Of a DNA stretch of 64,000 nucleotides, positions 5,870 to 48,904 are shown one piece after another (the first letter of the stretch is position 1; the number at the start of each line of letters is the position of its first letter). Under the pieces are notes generated by a model, which worked only from the letters and a program-made list of their open reading frames with translations, was not told the origin of the DNA and did no database searches. The stretch covers positions 514,118 to 578,117 of the forward strand of contig JAHQJS010000004.1 in NCBI GenBank assembly GCA_019057385.1, written 5' to 3'. The DNA is from Candidatus Borrarchaeum weybense (lineage in GTDB: Archaea; Asgardarchaeota; Sifarchaeia; Borrarchaeales; Borrarchaeaceae). Both the position numbers and the translations under genes were made by a program.

Positions 5870-5909
5870 TCAAGCGCCTCAAATATTCCCCTATGTTTGA
5901 AGAACCCAC

Positions 5910-8099
5910 ATGGTCCTTAAAATGAGGTTAAATGCAATTAAGAAGTACCGGATTGGTCTTGTCGTCGTTGTTATCATAAATTTTCTATTGACACTACCAA
6001 GACTGTATGAGGGAATTCCTTCTGGAATCGATTCAAACAGCCATTTATTCAAATGTATCTATATTTTTGAGTTTACAAAAAGGTTCGGTCATTTTCCGAG
6101 TTGGAGCGATGCATGGTACGGTGGCTATCCGATTTCTCTATTTTATCCTCCATTGAGCTACCACATTGCGGTTTTTGTAATGCAATTTGGCGTCCCGCCT
6201 CTCCTCGCTTATAAACTAATTGAAATCATCTTCTACGCATTAGTAACTCCGTTAGCAGTTTATACGTTAACCCAGGGACTTAAATTTAAAAAAGGAGTGG
6301 GGGTTTTTGCAGCGTTATTGTTTAGTGGAATACCTGAAGTTTTATTAAACTTGATGAGGATGGATAGATACCCAAACATCATAGTTATTCCACTCGTTTG
6401 TCTATTCTTTGGAATATTCTTCCGTATGAAAGGAACAAAATATTTTGTATTATCTTACGTTTTGTTAGGCAGCATTTTTCTTACTCACCATCTGACCGCT
6501 GTGTACATCAGCTTGCTTTTTCCAATCTATATTCTTTATCAGAGATTGAATGGAGTCAAAATCTCAAAGAGTTTTCTAGTAAGTTTATCTGTGCTTATTT
6601 GTGCATTTATTATCGCGGCATTTTGGACATTTCCATTTGTGCTAAACTTAAATCAATTACAAGAAAATCCCTTTATTAACAGGTCCATCCTGGGATCACA
6701 TACCCTCTTTGACACATTAACAGATATCAAATCTATTGGACTTGGACAAGTTTTGCTTATGCTTTTCGCAGGCGTGTTTTTAGTGGTTGCGTCATTCAAA
6801 AAGCATCTTGAAGGATTGCTTCAGAGATTTTTTCAAAAAAGTAGTTTCTTTCTTGTATTCTTCTTTTCAATTCTTGCTTTTGTCTCATTCTCCTCCTATA
6901 TAATCTTCCAAGATCTTTTAGACATCATATATTTGCTTTTACTTGGCTTTGTAGTTCTAACTCTGATTTTCCAGATTCCTTCAATCAATGCAACAAAGTT
7001 TTTTGAAAAGAAAGCATCATCGGTAATTTTCTGTCTTATCTGGTTTGTCCTATTTTTTTGGCTAGGACAAGGCGATGAAGCATTATTATATCAATTATTA
7101 CCTTATTGGCAAAAATTGGACCCTGACCGTTTTATCCTGTTTTCTTCGATTCCTTTAGCAATCCTTGGAGGATTCATATTAAATCATATTCTAACTACTT
7201 TTAATTCTGTCAACATCCACTCATTCTATCCTGTCCATACGAAAGAGCGGAGGTTTCTAGTATTCACTGGTTTGATGATATCCCTACTCGCTTTGAATTC
7301 CATTCAATTACAAAGGCATACTACGGATCCCACTTTGTATCGTGAAAATCATGAGTTTCCAAATGAAGTGTTTACTTATTTTGAAAGTCAAAAGGATTCT
7401 GGAAGAATCTTACCGATTCATTGTCCTAACTGGATCTATTCTTTTCCGGTAATTGGTGGTAATAAGTCGATCATTGACGGCTGGTACCCACAAGGACGTT
7501 TATTAACACCAATTCGATCGATAAGATCTTATTCTATTAATTACCTGTCTCTAGACGCAAATAGAACAGAAATTTGGAGTAACCTTATTGAAAATGCTGA
7601 AAATCTTGCTATTGGATGGATACTTCTTGGAGATGCACAGTATGCAGACCTTATTCCACTAAATGAATTCACTTTGGAGTTATACGCTGATGGCATCTTT
7701 ATTTACAAAGCGAAATTCAAAGTCGGCATGATTACTACAAATCCAGATTACTTGATCGATAAATGCGTACTCAGAAGGTATTCCGCTGAAAAATTTGTGA
7801 TTGAGGTTCAGGACCTTACTAGACCTGCAGAAATAATCATCAAGGAGGCATACTTTCCATATTGGACAGCCTATGTCGATGGCATCCCAGTAGATGTTTC
7901 AAAAAATGTAGATGGATTTATTCAAGTGAATATAAATCAAACTGGAGATTTCACTATTGAATTAAAATACGAAGAAAAGTTTGCCTTCGCTGCTGGAGTA
8001 TCTTTTCTAGCCTTGTTTGGAATTCCCATTCTTTTAGAGATCTTTCGAAGAAATGTCTATGCAAAGAATACTCGACTGAGGAAACTTTTTAATTTGTGA
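5910..8099 (+). CDS. Large polytopic membrane protein, GT-C-like (putative glycosyltransferase or oligosaccharide-handling protein)
   Basis: More than 12 predicted TM helices are followed by a soluble C-terminal domain and a terminal TM helix. It sits in a glycosylation gene context. I recognised no definitive motif. Confidence 0.4.
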   Translation: MVLKMRLNAIKKYRIGLVVVVIINFLLTLPRLYEGIPSGIDSNSHLFKCIYIFEFTKRFGHFPSWSDAWYGGYPISLFYPPLSYHIAVFVMQFGVPPLLAYKLIEIIFYALVTPLAVYTLTQGLKFKKGVGVFAALLFSGIPEVLLNLMRMDRYPNIIVIPLVCLFFGIFFRMKGTKYFVLSYVLLGSIFLTHHLTAVYISLLFPIYILYQRLNGVKISKSFLVSLSVLICAFIIAAFWTFPFVLNLNQLQENPFINRSILGSHTLFDTLTDIKSIGLGQVLLMLFAGVFLVVASFKKHLEGLLQRFFQKSSFFLVFFFSILAFVSFSSYIIFQDLLDIIYLLLLGFVVLTLIFQIPSINATKFFEKKASSVIFCLIWFVLFFWLGQGDEALLYQLLPYWQKLDPDRFILFSSIPLAILGGFILNHILTTFNSVNIHSFYPVHTKERRFLVFTGLMISLLALNSIQLQRHTTDPTLYRENHEFPNEVFTYFESQKDSGRILPIHCPNWIYSFPVIGGNKSIIDGWYPQGRLLTPIRSIRSYSINYLSLDANRTEIWSNLIENAENLAIGWILLGDAQYADLIPLNEFTLELYADGIFIYKAKFKVGMITTNPDYLIDKCVLRRYSAEKFVIEVQDLTRPAEIIIKEAYFPYWTAYVDGIPVDVSKNVDGFIQVNINQTGDFTIELKYEEKFAFAAGVSFLALFGIPILLEIFRRNVYAKNTRLRKLFNL

Positions 8100-8153: not shown

Positions 8154-8909
8154 ATGCAGAAGCATCATAAGACGGCGAAATCAATGGAAAAAACTAAAAA
8201 TAAAAAGTTAGCCAAAAAAAAGTCACTTTTTATTATGATACCTGCTTATAACGAAGAAAATTCGATCGCTGAAGTCATTCATAGAGCTAATAATATTAAA
8301 ATAAACAATGTTGAAATTATCACTCTTGTCATAAATGATGGCTCTAAAGATAACACTGAACGTTTAGCAGCAGAATCAGGAGCAGATTTAATTGTGTCAC
8401 ATAAAGTTAATAGAGGTCTAGGGGCAGCAATACGGACTGGTGTCGAAAAATCATTAGAAAACGGGGCTGATATGGCTGTTATGTTAGATGCTGACGGTGA
8501 GTATACACCAGAAGAAATTCCAGCATTAATTAAATTGATTTTACGCAATGAAGCTGACTATGTGTTAGGATCACGATTTATGGGATCAATACTTAAAATG
8601 AAAGTCCAAAGACGACTTGGAAACCTGTTTTTGACGGCACTTCTTATGTTATTTACGGGGCGACGAATTTCAGATGGACAAACTGGTCTACGGGCATTTA
8701 GTAAACGTGCTCTACAAAATTTGGAGATTGTGCACGATTATAATTATGCACAAGTACTTACAATCGATTTACTAAGAAAAGGATATCGACTCAAGGAAAT
8801 TCCGATTTCCTATTCTTTCAGAAAAACAGGAAAAAGCTTTGTACGCTTTAAATCATATGCGTTGAAAGTTTTTCCAGCAATGATTAAAGCACGACTCCGG
8901 CGTTTGTGA
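8154..8909 (+). CDS. GT2-family glycosyltransferase (dolichyl-phosphate sugar synthase-like)
   Basis: Motifs IMIPAYNEENSI, NDGSKDNT and DADGEY are the GT-A/GT2 signature. A T6 run follows the stop directly. Confidence 0.85.
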   Translation: MQKHHKTAKSMEKTKNKKLAKKKSLFIMIPAYNEENSIAEVIHRANNIKINNVEIITLVINDGSKDNTERLAAESGADLIVSHKVNRGLGAAIRTGVEKSLENGADMAVMLDADGEYTPEEIPALIKLILRNEADYVLGSRFMGSILKMKVQRRLGNLFLTALLMLFTGRRISDGQTGLRAFSKRALQNLEIVHDYNYAQVLTIDLLRKGYRLKEIPISYSFRKTGKSFVRFKSYALKVFPAMIKARLRRL

Positions 8910-9040
8910 CTTTTTTCGTCCTCATACCTGTCATCCATTCCCGTCGTAGAAGGCGTCAGACCTCTCGGGTTCAGTCTCATGCACAAGAACGTGTTCTCCG
9001 CGTGTTGCGAGGAACATTCCGTCTTGTAGTTGGCATATTG
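8902..9040 (-). ncRNA. Structured RNA element, copy A (unclassified family; omega-RNA-like by similarity to 24596-24862)
   Basis: About 85-90 percent identical to copy C (reverse-oriented at 48731-48860) outside one hairpin, which differs by compensatory changes. The antisense strand would carry T5-T8 runs, so the minus strand is favoured. Confidence 0.65.
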
Positions 9041-9104
9041 TCCAGCAACTATGAAAAGTAAAAGTATTATGCAGATCATTTTTTAAGCTCCATGTTAAAT
9101 ACTT

Positions 9105-9644
9105 CTAAAAGCCTCCTAAGTCATCTATGTAGAGATTAACCATTAAGAGTAAGTGATTTTTTAATGATGAAAAACCGAATTTGAGTGCTTCATTGATCCG
9201 ATTAAGTGTTTGAGACTTATAGATATAGGAATAGAGGGCATAAAGAGAGTATTGGCGTGTTTCGATCTCTTTTTTTAGGGTATCAAAATGAATTTTTGTT
9301 GTTTCAGTTACGCGGTAACGTGAAGGAGCGGAGAACCTGAATTTTCGTGAGATGCTGGAGGAAAATCTATCGTAGTATTGTAGGGTGGAAAGTAAAGGTA
9401 ACTCTCTGTAATCTAATTCGTAATTATGATGATTCTTAACCAATTGATAGATATAGTCATCGGAGATTTTGACCTCTGTATAGATTTTACTTGGATGTCT
9501 TTCAGTATTGACGAAATCGTGGAGAAGCATGGCGATCATCAGTTTTTGCATTGCATCTGAGAAGTTTGTTGGAAGCATTTTTCTGATCTTGATTTTTTTT
9601 GGAGAATAGAGGGGTTTCTTTTGAAGTTTTTCATTTCCTGCCAT
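9105..9644 (-). CDS. Helical protein with an HD-like motif (MLLHDF, NHHNYE); probably the C-terminal part of a frameshift fusion with 9539-9916
   Basis: This ORF overlaps the upstream Cas6-like ORF by 106 nt in the -1 frame. An HD dipeptide in a hydrophobic helix is the only catalytic-looking motif. Confidence 0.45.
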   Translation of the reverse strand: MAGNEKLQKKPLYSPKKIKIRKMLPTNFSDAMQKLMIAMLLHDFVNTERHPSKIYTEVKISDDYIYQLVKNHHNYELDYRELPLLSTLQYYDRFSSSISRKFRFSAPSRYRVTETTKIHFDTLKKEIETRQYSLYALYSYIYKSQTLNRINEALKFGFSSLKNHLLLMVNLYIDDLGGF

Positions 9645-9916
9645 TGTATTTGCCCCATGCCTTCATGGGTGTATCTTCCGATGCTATCTAGGGCAAGTGC
9701 TTCATCAAGTTTATATTCTGGAGCGATGACTTCAATATTGCCATACCAAGCCCTAAAAGTCATAGGTGCTCGTCTTTCACCCTTTGTAAGTTTGCCAAAC
9801 ACTCGTGGGCGTCCTTGAATGGTGACGATACCGATGTTTTTGAGTCCAAACCGATTTCTCTTAGCGACTACAGGTGTTTTAGTTATCCCCAGTAATTTAA
9901 TCCAGTTTTTTGTCAT
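9539..9916 (-). CDS. Cas6-like RAMP fragment (single RRM-like fold with a glycine-rich loop)
   Basis: FRAWYGNIEVIAPEYKLDEALALDSIGRYTHEGMGQIQW resembles the C-terminal Cas6 signature (G-x-G...GMGQ). An AGAGGAA SD lies upstream of the ATG. Confidence 0.5.
   Translation of the reverse strand: MTKNWIKLLGITKTPVVAKRNRFGLKNIGIVTIQGRPRVFGKLTKGERRAPMTFRAWYGNIEVIAPEYKLDEALALDSIGRYTHEGMGQIQWQEMKNFKRNPSILQKKSRSEKCFQQTSQMQCKN
9593..9600 (-). other. A8 homopolymer forming an A_AAA_AAA slippery heptamer at the junction of the two overlapping ORFs
   Basis: The minus strand reads CTC CAA AAA AAA TCA. A -1 slip (or one extra A) gives ...SILQKK-IKIRKMLPTNF..., a 270-aa fusion. Confidence 0.5.
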
Positions 9917-9960
9917 CGTTATTCCTCTTTATGAATAGTATCCCGTTATTAACATTTTAA

Positions 9961-10010
9961 CGGGATATCTAAACGTATCGGTTTTTTTACCTTTTCTTCG
10001 TAAATTGGAT
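9961..10010 (-). promoter_or_regulatory. Promoter block upstream of the Cas6-like ORF (TATA-like GTTTAGATATCCCG, an A-rich tract, then a hairpin ATCCCGTT/AACGGGAT and an SD)
   Basis: About 70 percent identical to the block upstream of the RAMP gene (11023-11092). The TATA-like box lies about 45-55 nt before the ATG at 9916. Confidence 0.5.
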
Positions 10011-10145
10011 ATCACTTTTATCGTCCCTTGGCTGTCATCCATCCCCATCAATACTAGAGGCGTGGGACCTCTTAGATGGTTCAGTCTCATACGCAAGAAC
10101 GTGCTCCTCACAATGTGAGAGAAGCATACCGTCATGGATGAGAAA
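10011..10145 (-). ncRNA. Structured RNA element, copy B (same family as copies A and C)
   Basis: Shares the blocks CACGUUCUUG.G.AUGAGACUGAAC, AAGAGGUC...CCUCU and GGAUGGAUGACAG with copies A and C. It lies between the RAMP gene and the Cas6-like ORF. Confidence 0.65.
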
Positions 10146-10193
10146 AAAGAAGAGTAGAAGAATATTGCAGAGTCTTCGATCATTTATCTCCCT

Positions 10194-10979
10194 TCAAGCG
10201 TCTAATGCGTCTAAAATTGTCCTCCAATCCTCAATTTCATCAAATTCAATTGATTCCGCTTCGATTTCTTCATTGACCTTATAGATACCATTGTTTCTTT
10301 TTACGGTCTTGATAACTTCAATTTTTAGAAGATCAAAGTCCAAAAGTTTAACCTGTCCATAGCCTGCGTTCTTACCGCCTCCAAGCGTTTCGATGTATAG
10401 CAATGACTCCATGAGGAATTTAATCTCTTCTTTAGTCAGAAGAGTTACATCAATAGAGAATGTGAAATAGCCACTGAAATAACTTTCACGAAAATCTTGG
10501 ATAGGTATACCCTCATAACTTAACGCTATCCTATTTTCGCTCAAGATATGAACTCTTTGCACCGCTACATCAGTATTATATTCTTTATGAGAGATAGAAG
10601 TAATAGGATCAGCATAGACAGAAATCCGGGATTCTTCGCGAAAACTACCAAAGATTCTTCGGAGAATACAGGGAGTATCACACGCACCAAATGGATGAAA
10701 CCCGTTAGGAATGAGTTTAGTGCCGTCTTTGAGTTCGGTTTTTTCACTGGTATGACAGACTTCGATACCACAATCTTGAGCCAGCGACATGGCGGCATGT
10801 CTTAGCATGCCACGCAAACCTTTGATATAATATACTTTGGTATTGAAGGTCTTTTCTCCATTTATATAAGGAATTTCACCGAGAAGCAACATGGTAGAAT
10901 TTTTCTGTATGGAGGCATTCAGGGGTTTGGCAATAGGGGTAAAGGCTCGAACCACAAGTTGTTTTTTTGTTTTTTTCAT
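10194..10979 (-). CDS. RAMP superfamily protein, type III-like Cas7 (Csm3/Cmr4-like)
   Basis: IKGLRGMLRHAA (the G-x-lR motif after beta1), the Cys pair plus CILRRIFGSF (Csm3-like C..C..FGS) and LGGGKNAGYGQVKL (the C-terminal glycine-rich loop). Confidence 0.65.
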   Translation of the reverse strand: MKKTKKQLVVRAFTPIAKPLNASIQKNSTMLLLGEIPYINGEKTFNTKVYYIKGLRGMLRHAAMSLAQDCGIEVCHTSEKTELKDGTKLIPNGFHPFGACDTPCILRRIFGSFREESRISVYADPITSISHKEYNTDVAVQRVHILSENRIALSYEGIPIQDFRESYFSGYFTFSIDVTLLTKEEIKFLMESLLYIETLGGGKNAGYGQVKLLDFDLLKIEVIKTVKRNNGIYKVNEEIEAESIEFDEIEDWRTILDALDA

Positions 10980-22186: not shown

Positions 22187-24325
22187 TTACGTATAGTATA
22201 TTGGCTGCGTTATATCGTCGCTACTTACACATGGTTGTACATTCAACCTGTTTGCCATATTCACCGCGTCCTCTGGAGTGCCATAATAGATATAAAATCC
22301 GTATATCGCCTCTGGACGTGCGTTGTCTTCTTTAAAGTAAATATTGTTGCTATCTAAAATAACTGATGTATATCTAGTTGTCTGAACGCTTATTAAACTA
22401 ACATTGTTTCCTAGATAAATCCAGCCATTAGATAAAAATAATTGACATTCTTTCGCCATAAAATCGCGTAAATTGAATATTCGTCCATTTGACATTGGTG
22501 AATATGCTATGGCGTCATCTGTTACGTTGAAATATACCCTATTTGCAACGATGTCGGATGTATTTAACTCTAGTGTTACGTAATATAATTTATCATTATA
22601 TTTGGTAACGTCTAATGTATAATTCTTAAATGAACATGTAACGTTGATTGGTAGTTCTCCTGCTGTTCCCTCAGGCGTCGTCGGATTATAGTATAATGTA
22701 TTTGTGCGTGTATCAATTACAACTGGTTGAGTAATATCTAACGATTGTAATAATGAATCTACAATCTTCTCCGATTCTGTAATAACATAGTTGCTGTAAT
22801 CTATCGAATATTCTACTTCACACTCTCTTGGAGTCCATCCTGTTGAATCGGATACCTCAGCAAGAAGTAGTATCTTCCATAATTTATTTATATCTTCCTG
22901 TATCGATGTATTAACGCCAGAAATGTTTGACACGTACTTAAATGTCGCCTCAGCCGATAGTAATGATGTTCTGGCTTGATACCGTAATGTCATTATTTCG
23001 ACATCTCGTTCATATCTATTGCGCTCTTCTCCCGACCATAAATAATTGCCGCCTTGAGTGACACATGGAATTTCTGGAATCTGTTTAACTGGTATATTTC
23101 TTTCTAAGCATACATCAACTAATTGCGAAATCGTTAAATATTGCGAATTGCGGCTATCGTAATCTCGTAATATATCTTCATACCTATGTTGCTTCTCTTT
23201 GACGTATGTGAAATCGTTCTTATTTTGATATGTATTAACTTGCTCTCCATCGTCGTAATACAACCACTTATATCCGAACGGTTCCGTAGTGCTATTATCG
23301 TCTATTTTAACGTCCCTGTTGAAAATTATGTAGGAATCGTTATTTGATTGGCAAAGTCCGTAATGTTTAAATGTATCGTTTGCATCTATATTATAATAAT
23401 TATTATAAGTAGCCGTTATCATTACCAAAGTTGTATATCCATAATCTTTCATAATTTCTTTTAATGCGGGTGAATACTGCCACTCCTGACAGCCAAATAT
23501 AGGACTTCGCGTAAGATTATATTTTTTTAATATTTCATCTGATATTTCAATTGATTTCCTTAATTCTAATTCGGGGTACGCAATAAAAAGTTGATCGGAA
23601 TAATGCGTAACAACTAACTCCAACTGACCCCGATCATGTAGTTTTTTAAACAACTCGAAAACATCGGGGTATTTTTCAGCCATGAGTTCTATACCTAAAC
23701 TTTGTATTTCGAATGTGAACGCGTATTTGGGATATCTCTCATACATCAAAAGTAAGTTTCTGATAGATCCGTTAACGATACGTTCTTCTGATATAGGATC
23801 GCCCGCTCTAAACTGCGGGTTAAAATGAAAATATGATACATAAAATTCTGCCTTATTTAATGGTACAGAATGGGTAGATGTTGTATGTGCGATAATGCTT
23901 ACTACTTTTTTATATACATTAGAAACGCCATATACCTCATAGTATAGCACATATATATTTTCGCCAGCGTTCTCAACAATTGTTTTGCGTGCAACCTCTG
24001 ATTTACCCCAAGAAGTTAGTATAACTATCTGAGTATCTACAGGCTTTGGTGTTGCGTTTGATTCGTCAACAATTTTTAATGTTACATGTTCTGGCTTATC
24101 TGATACAGAATGTAGTCTAATGTTTAATGTAATATCATCCCCAACTGTAACATAATCATCTACATCAGTTGTAAAATCGTCGATGACTATTGAATTTGAG
24201 GTATTAACGCCAACCATTTTAAATGCTAACATTTGCGTAGTGAATACGCTAGAAAGGATTACAAACGCGAGAATGCACAGAGGAATAACCGTAGGCGGTA
24301 TTATCCTATATGGCGCACAATGCAT
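22187..24325 (-). CDS. Secreted or membrane-anchored carbohydrate-active protein, GH57-like
   Basis: It has an N-terminal signal/TM segment. YFHFNPQF, RGQLELVVTHYSDQLF and FGCQEWQYSPALKEIMKDYGY resemble GH57 barrel motifs. Confidence 0.4.
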   Translation of the reverse strand: MHCAPYRIIPPTVIPLCILAFVILSSVFTTQMLAFKMVGVNTSNSIVIDDFTTDVDDYVTVGDDITLNIRLHSVSDKPEHVTLKIVDESNATPKPVDTQIVILTSWGKSEVARKTIVENAGENIYVLYYEVYGVSNVYKKVVSIIAHTTSTHSVPLNKAEFYVSYFHFNPQFRAGDPISEERIVNGSIRNLLLMYERYPKYAFTFEIQSLGIELMAEKYPDVFELFKKLHDRGQLELVVTHYSDQLFIAYPELELRKSIEISDEILKKYNLTRSPIFGCQEWQYSPALKEIMKDYGYTTLVMITATYNNYYNIDANDTFKHYGLCQSNNDSYIIFNRDVKIDDNSTTEPFGYKWLYYDDGEQVNTYQNKNDFTYVKEKQHRYEDILRDYDSRNSQYLTISQLVDVCLERNIPVKQIPEIPCVTQGGNYLWSGEERNRYERDVEIMTLRYQARTSLLSAEATFKYVSNISGVNTSIQEDINKLWKILLLAEVSDSTGWTPRECEVEYSIDYSNYVITESEKIVDSLLQSLDITQPVVIDTRTNTLYYNPTTPEGTAGELPINVTCSFKNYTLDVTKYNDKLYYVTLELNTSDIVANRVYFNVTDDAIAYSPMSNGRIFNLRDFMAKECQLFLSNGWIYLGNNVSLISVQTTRYTSVILDSNNIYFKEDNARPEAIYGFYIYYGTPEDAVNMANRLNVQPCVSSDDITQPIYYT

Positions 24326-24595: not shown

Positions 24596-24862
24596 CTATC
24601 TCCTCCTTTAACCTGCGTTACAGGAGGTCGGTTCTCCTCGCCAAAGTTATCAGTCAGTACTCTACGATGATCACTGAGCGTTTCCTCTCTGTTTAAACCA
24701 CCGTTTACAGAGCAAGGGACTAGAGAAGCATCCCTTGGTGTGTTCTTTAACTCTCCTGATAACGTAGATACCGTCATACACTATATGACCTCTCTTAGGC
24801 TAATCAACTAATTGCTCTCAGGTCTCACGGAACAAGCCCCTACCCTTTAGGGTGGTGGGGTA
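24596..24862 (-). ncRNA. Structured leader in the canonical omega-RNA (HEARO-like) position upstream of the IscB remnant
   Basis: GC content is locally higher and there is no credible ORF. Hairpins are dense: GUCAUA/UAUGAC, CAAGGGA/UCCCUUG, CUCUGU/ACAGAG, AGGAG/CUCCU and CCUG/CAGG. The leader ends at the SD of the PLMP ORF. Confidence 0.6.
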
Positions 24863-24869
24863 ATTGACT

Positions 24870-25637
24870 CTATGTTCGTTTCTTTTTGTAAGAGCGCCTA
24901 TATTTTTCGAAGTCAACAGAATCGTATACTTCTGCCATTTTGAAGAATATTGGGAAGAATTTTGCAACTTCAATGTCTTTGCTGATAAAGAAGATTGCGT
25001 TCAAACTGGATTGAGCCTCTTCATGATGTATAGCGAACCGCTTAATGTGGTCTCTGTATTTCAATAGAATTGCCCTTAATTGCTGCCCTTCTTTTGCAAG
25101 AAAGAGAGATCTAGCTGAGTACACCTCTGAACTTTTAACTAAAAATGCAGCATCAAATTTTTTGTCGATTTTAACAGTTTCAAGGTCAACTATTTCCTTG
25201 AACAAATCCTTTATGAGATGTTCTTCTTTTGGAATTACTTCTATCGTGATTGTTGCAGTCTTGCGAAGCGTTCCCATAAAAGCAAGTTTGTCTTGATCTT
25301 TTTGAAAATGATTAATTATTGGATGTAGTAGATTTTCACGATTCAATAAAACTAAGGCGACAGTAATATCTGACATGTATTTCTTTGGCACAGCATTGAT
25401 TCGAAAGCCCGACCCTCCTGCGTCTTCGTATTCCGCCTTTCCTTTCACATACTTTGGAACTACTTCTTCAATCTTTTTTGTGTATTTTTTCTTCAACCTA
25501 CGATTCTTTATAAACCCCACTATTATTGAGACCATAAATATTACGATTAGAGCACCAAAAATGATAATTTGGACGGTTAGAGGTATTGCCTGTATTATCT
25601 GTGCTAAAGCATCAAAAATTCCTTGTATCAGTATCAC
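24870..25637 (-). CDS. Hypothetical membrane-anchored protein (one N-terminal TM region)
   Basis: The ORF has a hydrophobic N-terminus. I recognised no motif. Confidence 0.5.
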   Translation of the reverse strand: MILIQGIFDALAQIIQAIPLTVQIIIFGALIVIFMVSIIVGFIKNRRLKKKYTKKIEEVVPKYVKGKAEYEDAGGSGFRINAVPKKYMSDITVALVLLNRENLLHPIINHFQKDQDKLAFMGTLRKTATITIEVIPKEEHLIKDLFKEIVDLETVKIDKKFDAAFLVKSSEVYSARSLFLAKEGQQLRAILLKYRDHIKRFAIHHEEAQSSLNAIFFISKDIEVAKFFPIFFKMAEVYDSVDFEKYRRSYKKKRT

Positions 25638-43886: not shown

Positions 43887-45047
43887 ATGGAAAACAATTT
43901 TGTGGTGATTAGAGGCGAAAAATATTACGTAAAAAACGGCATGCTAAACCTTAGCAGGAAAGAAATTACTGATCTCACAGAGATCAAGGGATTGGAGTCC
44001 CTGACTAATCTCCAAGAACTTACTCTTAGTTGGAATCAGATAGAAGATACCGAGGGATTAGAAAAAGTCACGAGTCTCCAACGACTAGACCTTACTGGGA
44101 ATCAAATCAAAGAGATCAGCGGATTGGGACATCTCAAGACACTCCAGATGTTATTTCTTGGACATAATCAGATAGAGGAACTTAGTGGACTGGAACGTCT
44201 ATCTAACCTACAAAAACTAGAACTTTTCGATAACCCGATCAAAGAAGAAGAAAGAGTCTTACTAGAACGCCGTGCGCAGGATATTGTGAAATACACTCAA
44301 GAAAAAGCAGAAGGAAAAGCAGATATAGGATGTGTGACATTTCAAGGGGAACTTCATTATGTAAAAGATGGCATTTTGAATCTATACAAGAAAAGAATTA
44401 CTGATATCTCTGAAATTGGGGGGTTGGAGCACCTTTCTAATCTTAAGGAATTACATCTTCATAATAGTTTCATTGAGGAAATCAAAGGATTGGAGCATTT
44501 AACCAACCTGCAGGAATTAGACCTTCGCTGGAATCAGATCGGAGAAATCAAGGGATTGGAAAACCTCACTAATCTCAAAGCACTACACCTTGATCGCAAT
44601 CAAATCAAAGAGATTGCAGGATTAGATAATCTTACTAATCTCCAACACATTTGTCTAAGTAATAATTTAATAAAAGAGATCAAGGGATTAGAGCACCTCT
44701 CTAATCTTAAAATATTATGTCTGCATGATAACTATATAGAAGAGATCAAGGGATTAGAAAATCTCAAAAATCTAGAAAAATTAAGCATTGGTAATAAGAT
44801 ACGAGAAATCAACGGATTGGACCCCCTCACTAATCTCAAAGAATTAAGTCTTTGGAATAATCAGATAAAAGAGATCAATGGTTTGGAATCGCTCGCTAAT
44901 CTCCAAGAACTTAATCTTCGAGGAAATCTATTAAGAGGCTATGAAAGAGAGTTAATTGCACGAGATGCTCAAGAAATTGTGAGTTACTGTCAAGAAAAGG
45001 CAAAAAAGGATAAGCCTGGATTACTAAAGAGGCTATTTGCGTACTAG
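43887..45047 (+). CDS. Leucine-rich repeat protein (two blocks of 22-residue LRRs)
   Basis: Repeats of the form LxxLxxLxLxxNxIxEIxGLE recur. Each block starts with a similar YYVKNGMLNL/HYVKDGILNL cap. Confidence 0.85.
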   Translation: MENNFVVIRGEKYYVKNGMLNLSRKEITDLTEIKGLESLTNLQELTLSWNQIEDTEGLEKVTSLQRLDLTGNQIKEISGLGHLKTLQMLFLGHNQIEELSGLERLSNLQKLELFDNPIKEEERVLLERRAQDIVKYTQEKAEGKADIGCVTFQGELHYVKDGILNLYKKRITDISEIGGLEHLSNLKELHLHNSFIEEIKGLEHLTNLQELDLRWNQIGEIKGLENLTNLKALHLDRNQIKEIAGLDNLTNLQHICLSNNLIKEIKGLEHLSNLKILCLHDNYIEEIKGLENLKNLEKLSIGNKIREINGLDPLTNLKELSLWNNQIKEINGLESLANLQELNLRGNLLRGYERELIARDAQEIVSYCQEKAKKDKPGLLKRLFAY

Positions 45048-48730: not shown

Positions 48731-48860
48731 CTTGAACAAGGCGGAATGCTTCTCTTGTAGCGAGGGGAGCACGTTCTTGTGCATGAGACTGAACACGAGA
48801 GGTCTGACGCCTTCTAAGACGGGAATGGATGACAGGCAGGGGACGAAAAAGGTCAAAAAC
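48731..48860 (+). ncRNA. Structured RNA element, copy C (stand-alone locus, same family as copies A and B)
   Basis: It is the reverse complement of copy A apart from the compensatory hairpin. TATA-like AAAATATATAAG lies at 48677-48688 upstream, and a hairpin plus T7 lies downstream at 48905-48934. Confidence 0.7.
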
Positions 48861-48904
48861 ACGAACACGAAAAAGAAAAAAAGTTAGGTATATCTGTCCT
48901 TAAC

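Follow-up and report, generated by a model that had tools for sequence, protein, structure and literature searches.

The stretch analysed here (hereafter the window) comprises 64,000 nucleotides (nt) of a contig of the Asgard archaeon Candidatus Borrarchaeum weybense (GenBank assembly GCA_019057385.1, contig JAHQJS010000004.1, positions 514,118 to 578,117 of the forward strand). It holds three copies, A, B and C, of an element of about 135 nt that had been picked out in an earlier note, made from the sequence alone, as a conserved structured RNA. Copies A and B lie among cas-like genes, and copy C is an orphan (Table 1). The positions, orientations and shared blocks given for the three copies were all recovered: a 25-nt core, CACGTTCTTGYGYATGAGACTGAAC, has 3 exact occurrences in the 64 kb window where shuffled sequences lead to expect 0.00, and GGRATGGATGACAG has 3 where 0.65 are expected. 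The covariance-model search proposed in the earlier note was run with a model built from 53 relatives, and copies A, B and C were its only matches in the window.

Table 1. Coordinates of the RNA element, its structural parts and the neighbouring genes (positions within the window; ORF, open reading frame; aa, amino acids; R1, covariance model; A4, alignment of 53 full-length unique copies).
Feature	Position	Strand	Basis or remark
Copy A, RNA element	8900..9032	-	Covariance model R1, 154 bits; first row of alignment A4
Copy A, P1	9026-9020 with 8991-8984	-	Pair counts on alignment
Copy A, P2 hairpin	9016-8992	-	
Copy A, P3	8969-8940, loop 8960-8954	-	
Copy A, anti-P1 partner (linker)	8927-8917	-	
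Copy A, pseudoknot 3' strand GUCA	8910-8907	-	
Copy B, RNA element	10012..10136	-	Covariance model R1, 121.5 bits; alignment A4
Copy B, P3			Outer stem is the longer CCAUC/GAUGG version; loop UCCCACG
Copy B, pseudoknot 3' strand GUGA	10015-10012	-	
Copy C, RNA element	48737..48863	+	Orphan, flanked by convergent genes; covariance model R1, 139.7 bits
Copy C, pseudoknot 3' strand GUCA	48852-48855	+	Conserved tail AAAAACAC next
Short ORF over copy A, 89 aa	8810..9079	-	GGAG 8 nt before ATG; hydrophobic N-terminus MICIILLLFIVAG; tail not conserved
Short ORF over copy B, 84 aa	9929..10183	-	GGGAG 5 nt before ATG; directly after cas7-like stop codon
cas5-like/HD-motif gene X269	9105..9916	-	Frameshift-split into ORFs 9916-9539 and 9644-9105 (125 aa, 179 aa)
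cas7-like RAMP gene, 261 aa	10194..10979	-	Pfam RAMPs PF03787 E = 2.4e-8; PADLOC Csm3 E = 2e-11
NACHT/STAND NTPase gene, 1337 aa	11536..15549	-	Pfam NACHT, NPHP3_N weak; DUF11 repeat region; directly upstream of cas7-like gene
Convergent glycosyltransferase gene	8154..8909	+	Pfam Glycos_transf_2 E = 7.5e-24

Copy B begins about 55 nt past the stop codon of the cas7-like gene, whose product also gives weak matches to the NCBIfam gRAMP and Csf2 models and is 80% identical to the RAMP protein of a related locus (L062; related sequences are denoted by L numbers). Copy A begins about 75 nt past the end of the cas5-like gene, X269. The frameshift in this gene was recognized by tblastn, the intact 269-aa protein of L062 matching the two pieces in different frames. 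In L046, the closest relative, the cas5-like protein is also matched in two pieces (residues 95-215 and 214-266), and its N-terminal part is absent; the gene may be decaying in the window lineage while the RNA copies stay intact. The X269 family counts 73 homologues. The protein has an invariant G-rich loop (G..G.G..W) and HD..H..NHH..D motifs. Profile searches, PADLOC and NCBIfam included, returned no match to it. The best Foldseek matches of its AlphaFold2 model (mean predicted local distance difference test score, pLDDT, 83.8) were Cas6, Cmr1, Cmr3 and Csf RAMPs, all of them weak (E >= 0.06, template modelling score about 0.2-0.3).

These genes fit the published description of ARAMP, an array-less CRISPR-like system derived from type III that occurs in Asgard archaea. 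It has diverged homologues of Cas5 and Cas7, associated nucleases and, in many cases, a distinct Cas1, and its mechanism has been called enigmatic (PMC8730458; PMC12669027). In line with the description of ARAMP/HRAMP systems, the locus of copies A and B combines a diverged Cas7-like RAMP with a second RAMP-like protein in an Asgard host, and it is devoid of an array: no CRISPR array was detected in the window with Tandem Repeats Finder, and k-mer scanning of another 103 sources (720 kb including the window) showed none in any ARAMP locus. Relatives of the locus add a Cas1-like gene (L062; PADLOC E = 2.5e-9, NCBIfam cas1 E = 9.3e-9, under the cut-off) and nucleases such as GIY-YIG, found behind the RNA in L029 and L103. 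Neither gene is present in the window, which has the NACHT NTPase instead. This NTPase is possibly part of the same defence island as the ARAMP pair, and its neighbourhood recalls a STAND-linked, array-less type I-E derivative in Streptomyces (PMC8730458). What differs from the published ARAMP and HRAMP loci is the structured RNA, fixed here in the loci of one clade, while published descriptions name no RNA component (PMC8730458; PMC12669027). In the literature searched, no RNA tied to ARAMP is described; the original ARAMP paper of 2020 lies outside that search and possibly noted a conserved non-coding region.

Relatives of the element were collected in two ways. A pattern scan of one genome per species gave nine loci, all in Asgard metagenome-assembled genomes (MAGs; Borrarchaeum, Sifarchaeum or 'Promethearchaeota'), and a looser pattern applied to metagenomes gave 87 stretches, about half of which held true copies. 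An nhmmer search over all fetched sequence then yielded 74 copies, 60 of them unique, from Sifarchaeia/Borrarchaeota-like Asgard MAGs and sediment metagenomes; every identifiable one is Asgard. The 53 full-length unique copies make up alignment A4. The majority of copies, A and B among them, directly follow the cas7-like or cas5-like gene of an ARAMP locus, on the same strand. When all loci were compared by tblastn, the gene order was cas7-cas5-RNA or cas7-RNA-cas5-RNA wherever the available sequence suffices, and the RNA stood behind every cas5-like gene of the clade that has downstream sequence. The element was also found right behind the cas5-like gene in 3 of the 3 loci that had been fetched by protein and not by RNA. 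The copy behind the cas5-like gene is of the A type, the second copy, behind the cas7-like gene, is of the B type and restricted to one sub-clade, and extra copies such as C are found elsewhere; an orthologous counterpart of copy C is conserved in L050.

The alignment supports a fold with three helices and a pseudoknot. P1 pairs ACAAGNCG with CGU-UCUUGU, and P2, a 10-bp hairpin of variable sequence, stacks on it over a 3-nt bulge. A conserved junction (GYGCAUGAGACUGAA) leads to P3, which has an inner stem AGAGG/CCUYY, a 7-nt loop (UCUGACG or UCCCACG) and an outer stem existing in three versions (CCCG/CGGG, CCAUC/GAUGG and CCUCAUC/GAUGAGG). A conserved linker (RAUGRAUGACAGG..RRGGACGAnAAAn) and a GUCA or GUGA tail complete the element. 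Over the 53 copies, standard pairs fill 91.5% of cells, against 40-54% when the partners are slid by 1-3 columns. Two-sided changes occur at 13 pairs, and 0 of 500 shuffles attained any of the observed measures. The hairpin in which the earlier note had seen pairing maintained despite sequence change is P2, and the observation held: 7 of its 10 pairs show two-sided changes (for example UA34/CG10/UG8 and GC37/GU6/AU3/UA3 among the 53 unique members). For the second hairpin named there, the inner P3 stem (AGAGG/CCUUCU), the pairing is real (97.6% of cells), but the claimed covariation is not, as its changes are one-sided GU/GC only; the true covariation of P3 resides in the outer stem and the pseudoknot.

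The pseudoknot, which joins the P3 loop to four bases of the 3' tail, was first spotted by eye. Its column pair 84-137 ranks first in an unbiased mutual-information scan of all column pairs (CG in 25 copies, GC in 22, others in 6). The loop sequence shifts together with the tail, GUCA or GUGA, so that the pairing is kept in both settings, and a further variant pairs CCAU with AUGA. A second long-range interaction, anti-P1, would compete with the first helix: the 3' strand of P1 and the first junction bases can pair with the purine-rich 3' linker, with 96.6% of cells paired over 10 pairs, against 43-59% when slid. Every one-sided change is compatible with this pairing (UA26/UG26, UG25/UA23, GC28/GU23/AU2), and in a variant copy with a different P1 sequence (L085:6214) both P1 and anti-P1 can still form. 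Since the 3' strand of P1 has this alternative partner, the RNA looks bistable, with two mutually exclusive folds, the P1-P2 hairpin and anti-P1.

Numerous G.U pairs (UG38 at columns 23-35, GU28 at 77-91, UG51 at 45-125) fix the functional strand, and bear out the predicted minus-strand sense of copies A and B and plus-strand sense of copy C. They also bear on the idea of a selfish repeat, MITE-like (miniature inverted-repeat transposable element) or other mobile DNA, without RNA function and whose apparent structure would be inherited similarity. Copies are indeed dispersed over unrelated contexts, with tandem and 5'-truncated examples (L059, L065, L043), a Cas1-like integrase gene is present in the related locus L062, and several convergent genes end exactly at the TGA antisense to the tail, a possible sign of insertion-site preference. 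Transposon ends, which the earlier note had named as what would undo the RNA interpretation, were looked for: none of the three window copies is flanked by inverted repeats, and the boundaries, inspected by eye, are without target duplication. Viral origin was dropped as well, since two pattern scans found no copy in 2.9 million IMG/VR contigs. Double compensatory changes, a covarying long-range pair, G.U pairs restricted to one strand, and a position behind the cas5-like gene that is fixed across proteins only 65-70% identical are all difficult to reconcile with such a repeat. The lack of inverted repeats, the strand-specific G.U pairs and the long-range covariation make it the weakest of the rivals, and we regard it as very improbable.

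The earlier note could not assign the element to tRNA, rRNA, SRP RNA, C/D or H/ACA small RNAs or a known riboswitch, and the searches agree. An Rfam 15 search (4227 models, gathering threshold), likewise suggested there, had a single match in the whole window, HEARO at 24627-24868, away from the copies; a permissive search (E <= 10) of 8800-10300 gave chance-level matches far under threshold, and ARAGORN found 0 tRNA or tmRNA genes in the window. As judged by comparative sequence analysis, the element is a previously uncatalogued structured RNA family. Several specific identities were set aside. A K-turn or box C/D small RNA was rejected, as the Gs needed for sheared pairing are not constant (14 of 53 copies have CAAA or CUAA in place of CUGA, about 40% have GAAUGA in place of GGAUGA, and the two changes are uncorrelated), and so was a hammerhead or other known ribozyme, with no Rfam match even at E <= 10. 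The copies do not resemble CRISPR repeats or CRISPR RNAs (crRNAs), being 135 nt long and occurring either alone or at a distance of about 1.1 kb, with an intervening gene. A GAAAAGTGGCAGTAAAAAGTYGTTT motif is present in 2-3 irregularly spaced copies upstream of some orphans (L003 ~330-470, L004 ~5890-6050, L021 ~2300-2430, L083 ~810-880) and is not an array. The only CRISPR array met in the k-mer scan lies on a 1275-bp contig, L011 (repeat GTTTCAGAAGAACTTAGTAGTGTGGAAAC), one spacer of which (TCAAAACGTTCTTGAGAATGAGACTGTCTTAGG...) matches 21 of 24 core bases. This is probably a chance match on an unrelated contig, because the retrieval pattern forces 19 bases and the ...TTGAGAATGAGAC string occurs in unrelated coding matches. 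Finally, an omega RNA would be expected next to an iscB or tnpB gene, and no TnpB or IscB gene flanks any copy. The HEARO match itself (an IscB-type omega RNA) is full-length, on the minus strand, at 127.7 bits. No recognisable IscB neighbours it: ORF 24870-25637 (255 aa), which adjoins it, is without a match in Pfam, and the next one downstream, 22187-24325, is GH57-like.

A short ORF runs through the element, and the question arises of whether RNA or protein is under constraint. This ORF is open across all three window copies and most relatives (about 51 of 60 unique copies), and gene callers have derived 21 'hypothetical proteins' from it. A Shine-Dalgarno (SD) sequence and an ATG stand directly behind the stop codons of the preceding cas-like genes, in A-type and B-type copies alike. 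Over codons 9-16 the middle base is kept as T, whereas the first and third codon positions are free to change (entropy 0.56 versus 1.25 and 1.29). Such a pattern marks a hydrophobic peptide rather than a TATA box. An archaeal promoter of its own, with TTTATA, conserved some 28 nt ahead of P1, as its TATA box, was accordingly rejected as the main explanation: several copies have TTTCTC, TGTATC or TCCCTC there, with the second-position T kept. The coding-like period-3 pattern is confined to the N-terminal 8 codons. Further on, amino acids of the P2 region are wholly changed and its base pairs retained. The block GGACGAnAAAgGUSA is conserved over a 1-nt indel of the linker (16 of 53 copies) and is thus read in two frames. 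About 9 of 60 unique copies have stops or frameshifts with the RNA features intact, and in the L070/L012 clade the cas5-like ORF runs into the element, a separate start being absent. There is no conserved stop codon, products ranging from 19 to more than 200 aa with unrelated tails. With a 3' block in two frames, no conserved stop and broken ORFs, protein coding does not account for the conservation as the only constraint. We conclude from these patterns that constraint on the conserved 135 nt acts at the RNA level, and the short ORF crossing them is probably translated. A -1 frameshift site (A AAA AAG) was discarded, since the A-run is conserved neither in frame nor in sequence. In-frame fusions of the short ORF with the next gene were not retained as evidence for a fusion protein: they are explained by the fixed 6-nt SD-ATG spacing, and so amount to one coincidence and not four.

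The peptide itself could be the functional product, that of a type I toxin-like or CreT-like addiction module in a cas-like operon, the structure of the messenger RNA (mRNA) restraining its translation or stability, perhaps under the ARAMP proteins. Such a module would explain the SD and ATG right behind the cas7-like and cas5-like stops, the period-3 T, the mostly open ORF, and a multi-copy element with decayed copies, as in toxin families; CreTA RNA toxin-antitoxin pairs, which safeguard cas operons, offer a precedent, and CreT carries an SD and a mini-ORF (PMC8730458). The element also shares with type I toxin mRNAs (hok/sok type) a short hydrophobic ORF, a conserved covarying mRNA structure and multiple, partly decayed copies. 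It departs from them by the unconserved stop, the 3' blocks conserved in two frames and a hydrophobic run of only about 11-12 residues, and no antisense or antitoxin RNA was found. The L070/L012 clade has no separate start, and copy C, like others, lacks the N-terminal part, both the upstream start codon and the hydrophobic segment being absent. Systems of the hok/sok type are not known to be established in archaea. We consider a peptide product as the main function quite unlikely.

The 3' tail behaves differently according to what follows it. When the tail is GUGA, mostly within GGUGAU, 11 unique copies have a start codon on the same strand about 7 nt further on, and the genes belong to 5 families: Rpb5-like rpoH, GIY-YIG nuclease, acyl-CoA dehydrogenase, PGM/PMM-family mutase and a 149-aa protein. 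Among copies with a GUCA tail, a same-strand start codon at about +7 was never seen. Where a gene follows, the tail of the pseudoknot is the predicted SD of that gene, and the pseudoknot would hide its ribosome-binding site. The GUCA tail has another property. In copy A, the TGA stop of the convergent glycosyltransferase gene (8907-8909) is the antisense of the UCA of GUCA, and is followed by a T6 run antisense to GACGAAAAAAG. At five independent loci with this tail the convergent gene ends in such a TGA, then a T-run, and the genes belong to four unrelated families, GT2 (window, 8907-8919), MFS, CbiQ and RFC large subunit (L006, L015, L005/L085, L046). The element may double as stop codon and terminator for the opposite gene, or insert at such sites. 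Separately, in L085 (210-760) and L065 the gene with its SD in the pseudoknot codes for a eukaryote-like long form of RNA polymerase subunit H/Rpb5, in which an Mrr-type restriction-endonuclease fold at the N-terminus is fused to the Rpb5 C-terminal domain (E = 6.6e-30).

Highly conserved junction nucleotides between variable stems, an alternative helix and a pseudoknot involving an SD are typical features of riboswitches, and a metabolite or ion sensor with its aptamer in the P1/P3/pseudoknot core was considered. SD-sequestering pseudoknot leaders (preQ1-II, SAM-II, fluoride riboswitch) likewise pair a hairpin loop with the ribosome-binding site of the gene behind them and have an alternative helix in competition with P1. 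Translationally coupled leader ORFs resemble the element in their short upstream ORF. But the downstream genes have no common theme (RNA polymerase subunit, nuclease, acyl-CoA dehydrogenase, sugar-phosphate mutase or none), many copies have no downstream gene and keep the pseudoknot nonetheless, an ORF that looks translated runs through the putative aptamer, and there is no match to such leaders in Rfam. Metabolite or ion sensing thus appears highly unlikely.

The constant company of the cas7-like/cas5-like pair in this clade raises another possibility, namely that the element acts in trans, as an RNA subunit in the ARAMP effector. On this view a fixed RNA, crRNA-like or a scaffold, would be released by cleavage of the operon transcript and would bind the Cas5-like and Cas7-like proteins in place of a CRISPR array, and orphans would be extra RNA species. 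RAMP proteins of class 1 systems (Cas5, Cas7) bind crRNA handles and guides, and orphans such as copy C, which have no gene to regulate, retain the whole structure. Sequences diverge, as guides would, straight after the conserved tail, and the block GGGGACGAGAAA presumably resembles the 3' ends of some type III repeats. However, no repeat-spacer logic was seen, the variable region past the tail is the neighbouring gene or its start codon, and the tail is an SD where a gene follows. Other ARAMP clades do not have such an RNA, and no Cas6 or other processing site was identified. Small RNA elements in or beside cas operons and tied to Cas proteins are well represented by CreTA, tracrRNA/scaRNA and delocalized crRNAs; the present element differs from these in having no repeat- or spacer-like part and no partner RNA found, in its greater length, its pseudoknot and two-state fold, and its long ORF with no conserved stop. 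A trans-acting subunit is rather unlikely in our view.

We favour, at a probability of about one half, an ARAMP-associated regulatory RNA acting in cis and probably bound by RAMP proteins. The element adjoins cas-like genes, it is overlapped by an SD-led ORF, and its 3' end is the ribosome-binding site of the next gene in 11 unique copies, which all point to a place within an mRNA, as a structured leader, intercistronic element or 3' element. The conserved structured RNA with compensatory changes announced in the earlier note is thus upheld, whereas its free-standing non-coding RNA gene family is not, given the position in a cas-like operon, the overlapping ORF and the 3' end serving as ribosome-binding site. 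The ORF through the copies, the operon around A and B, the pseudoknot and the alternative helix were absent from that note. In the proposed scheme, the element would be transcribed in the sense of the genes, within the operon RNA, and would toggle between the P1-P2 hairpin and anti-P1, with P3 and the pseudoknot present in both states. It could act as a cis switch on the RNA that carries it, governing how the overlapping short ORF and the following gene, which often encodes a nuclease, are translated and perhaps how stable they are. The switch might be set by binding of the neighbouring Cas7-like and Cas5-like RAMPs, by ribosomes on the short ORF, or by both.

Several points weigh against cis regulation. 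Most copies behind cas5-like genes have a GUCA tail and no co-directional gene after them, so that SD hiding is not the core function. What points to binding by RAMP proteins is adjacency alone, and the peptide product may matter, given its SD, its ATG and its conserved second codon position. Columns 41-59 are fixed by the retrieval pattern and invariant by construction, and the covariation counts come from a sampled family that is one clade, with kinship not corrected for. Single-sequence folding energies are unremarkable (z = -0.35, -0.01 and -1.69); thermodynamic stability was dropped as an argument, and structural support is therefore comparative. Finally, the covariance model finds no such RNA at distant ARAMP pairs (36-42% identity, other Asgards). 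The idea of an analogous RNA at these loci was dropped: in L100, the gap past the gene shows no more stable folding than expected and has a tRNA-like look.

These distant pairs have surroundings of their own. The cas7-like and cas5-like genes adjoin rpoE(Rpb7)-spt4-DUF359-S24e-S27ae (L098 7228-9891; L100 7231-9005; L097 111-1821), the pair overlapping rpoE in L098, and a housekeeping cluster is an odd place for a defence system. A divergent MazE/AbrB-like gene and LAGLIDADG-like ORFs lie upstream. Two further features were seen in the window. Between copy B and the cas5-like start, 9939-9967 contains a perfect 10-bp inverted repeat (TATCCCGTTA / TAACGGGATA), preceded by a conserved CCAATTTACGAA..GGT(N7)ACC that varies between GGU/ACC and ACGG/CCGU in relatives; the repeat may mark a promoter region or form another small regulatory hairpin. 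At 44543-44918, 3.5 tandem copies of a 66-nt repeat (67-79% matches), within ORF 43887-45047, resemble a coding repeat of the leucine-rich-repeat type.

RAMP proteins bind RNA, yet the descriptions cited above assign none to HRAMP or ARAMP, and the element is a concrete and testable candidate for an RNA bound or controlled by ARAMP proteins. It would add a class of structured RNA to archaea, a domain with few known, and exemplifies how RNA structure and a short ORF can share one sequence. More tentatively, and with more doubt than confidence, we propose that it could be the missing RNA component of an array-less CRISPR derivative, on which the Cas5-like and Cas7-like proteins would assemble, either as a guide-like effector ribonucleoprotein or as a sensor-switch releasing translation of the linked nuclease or toxic peptide. 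If this were true, a CRISPR derivative would have exchanged its adaptive array for a hard-wired riboregulator.

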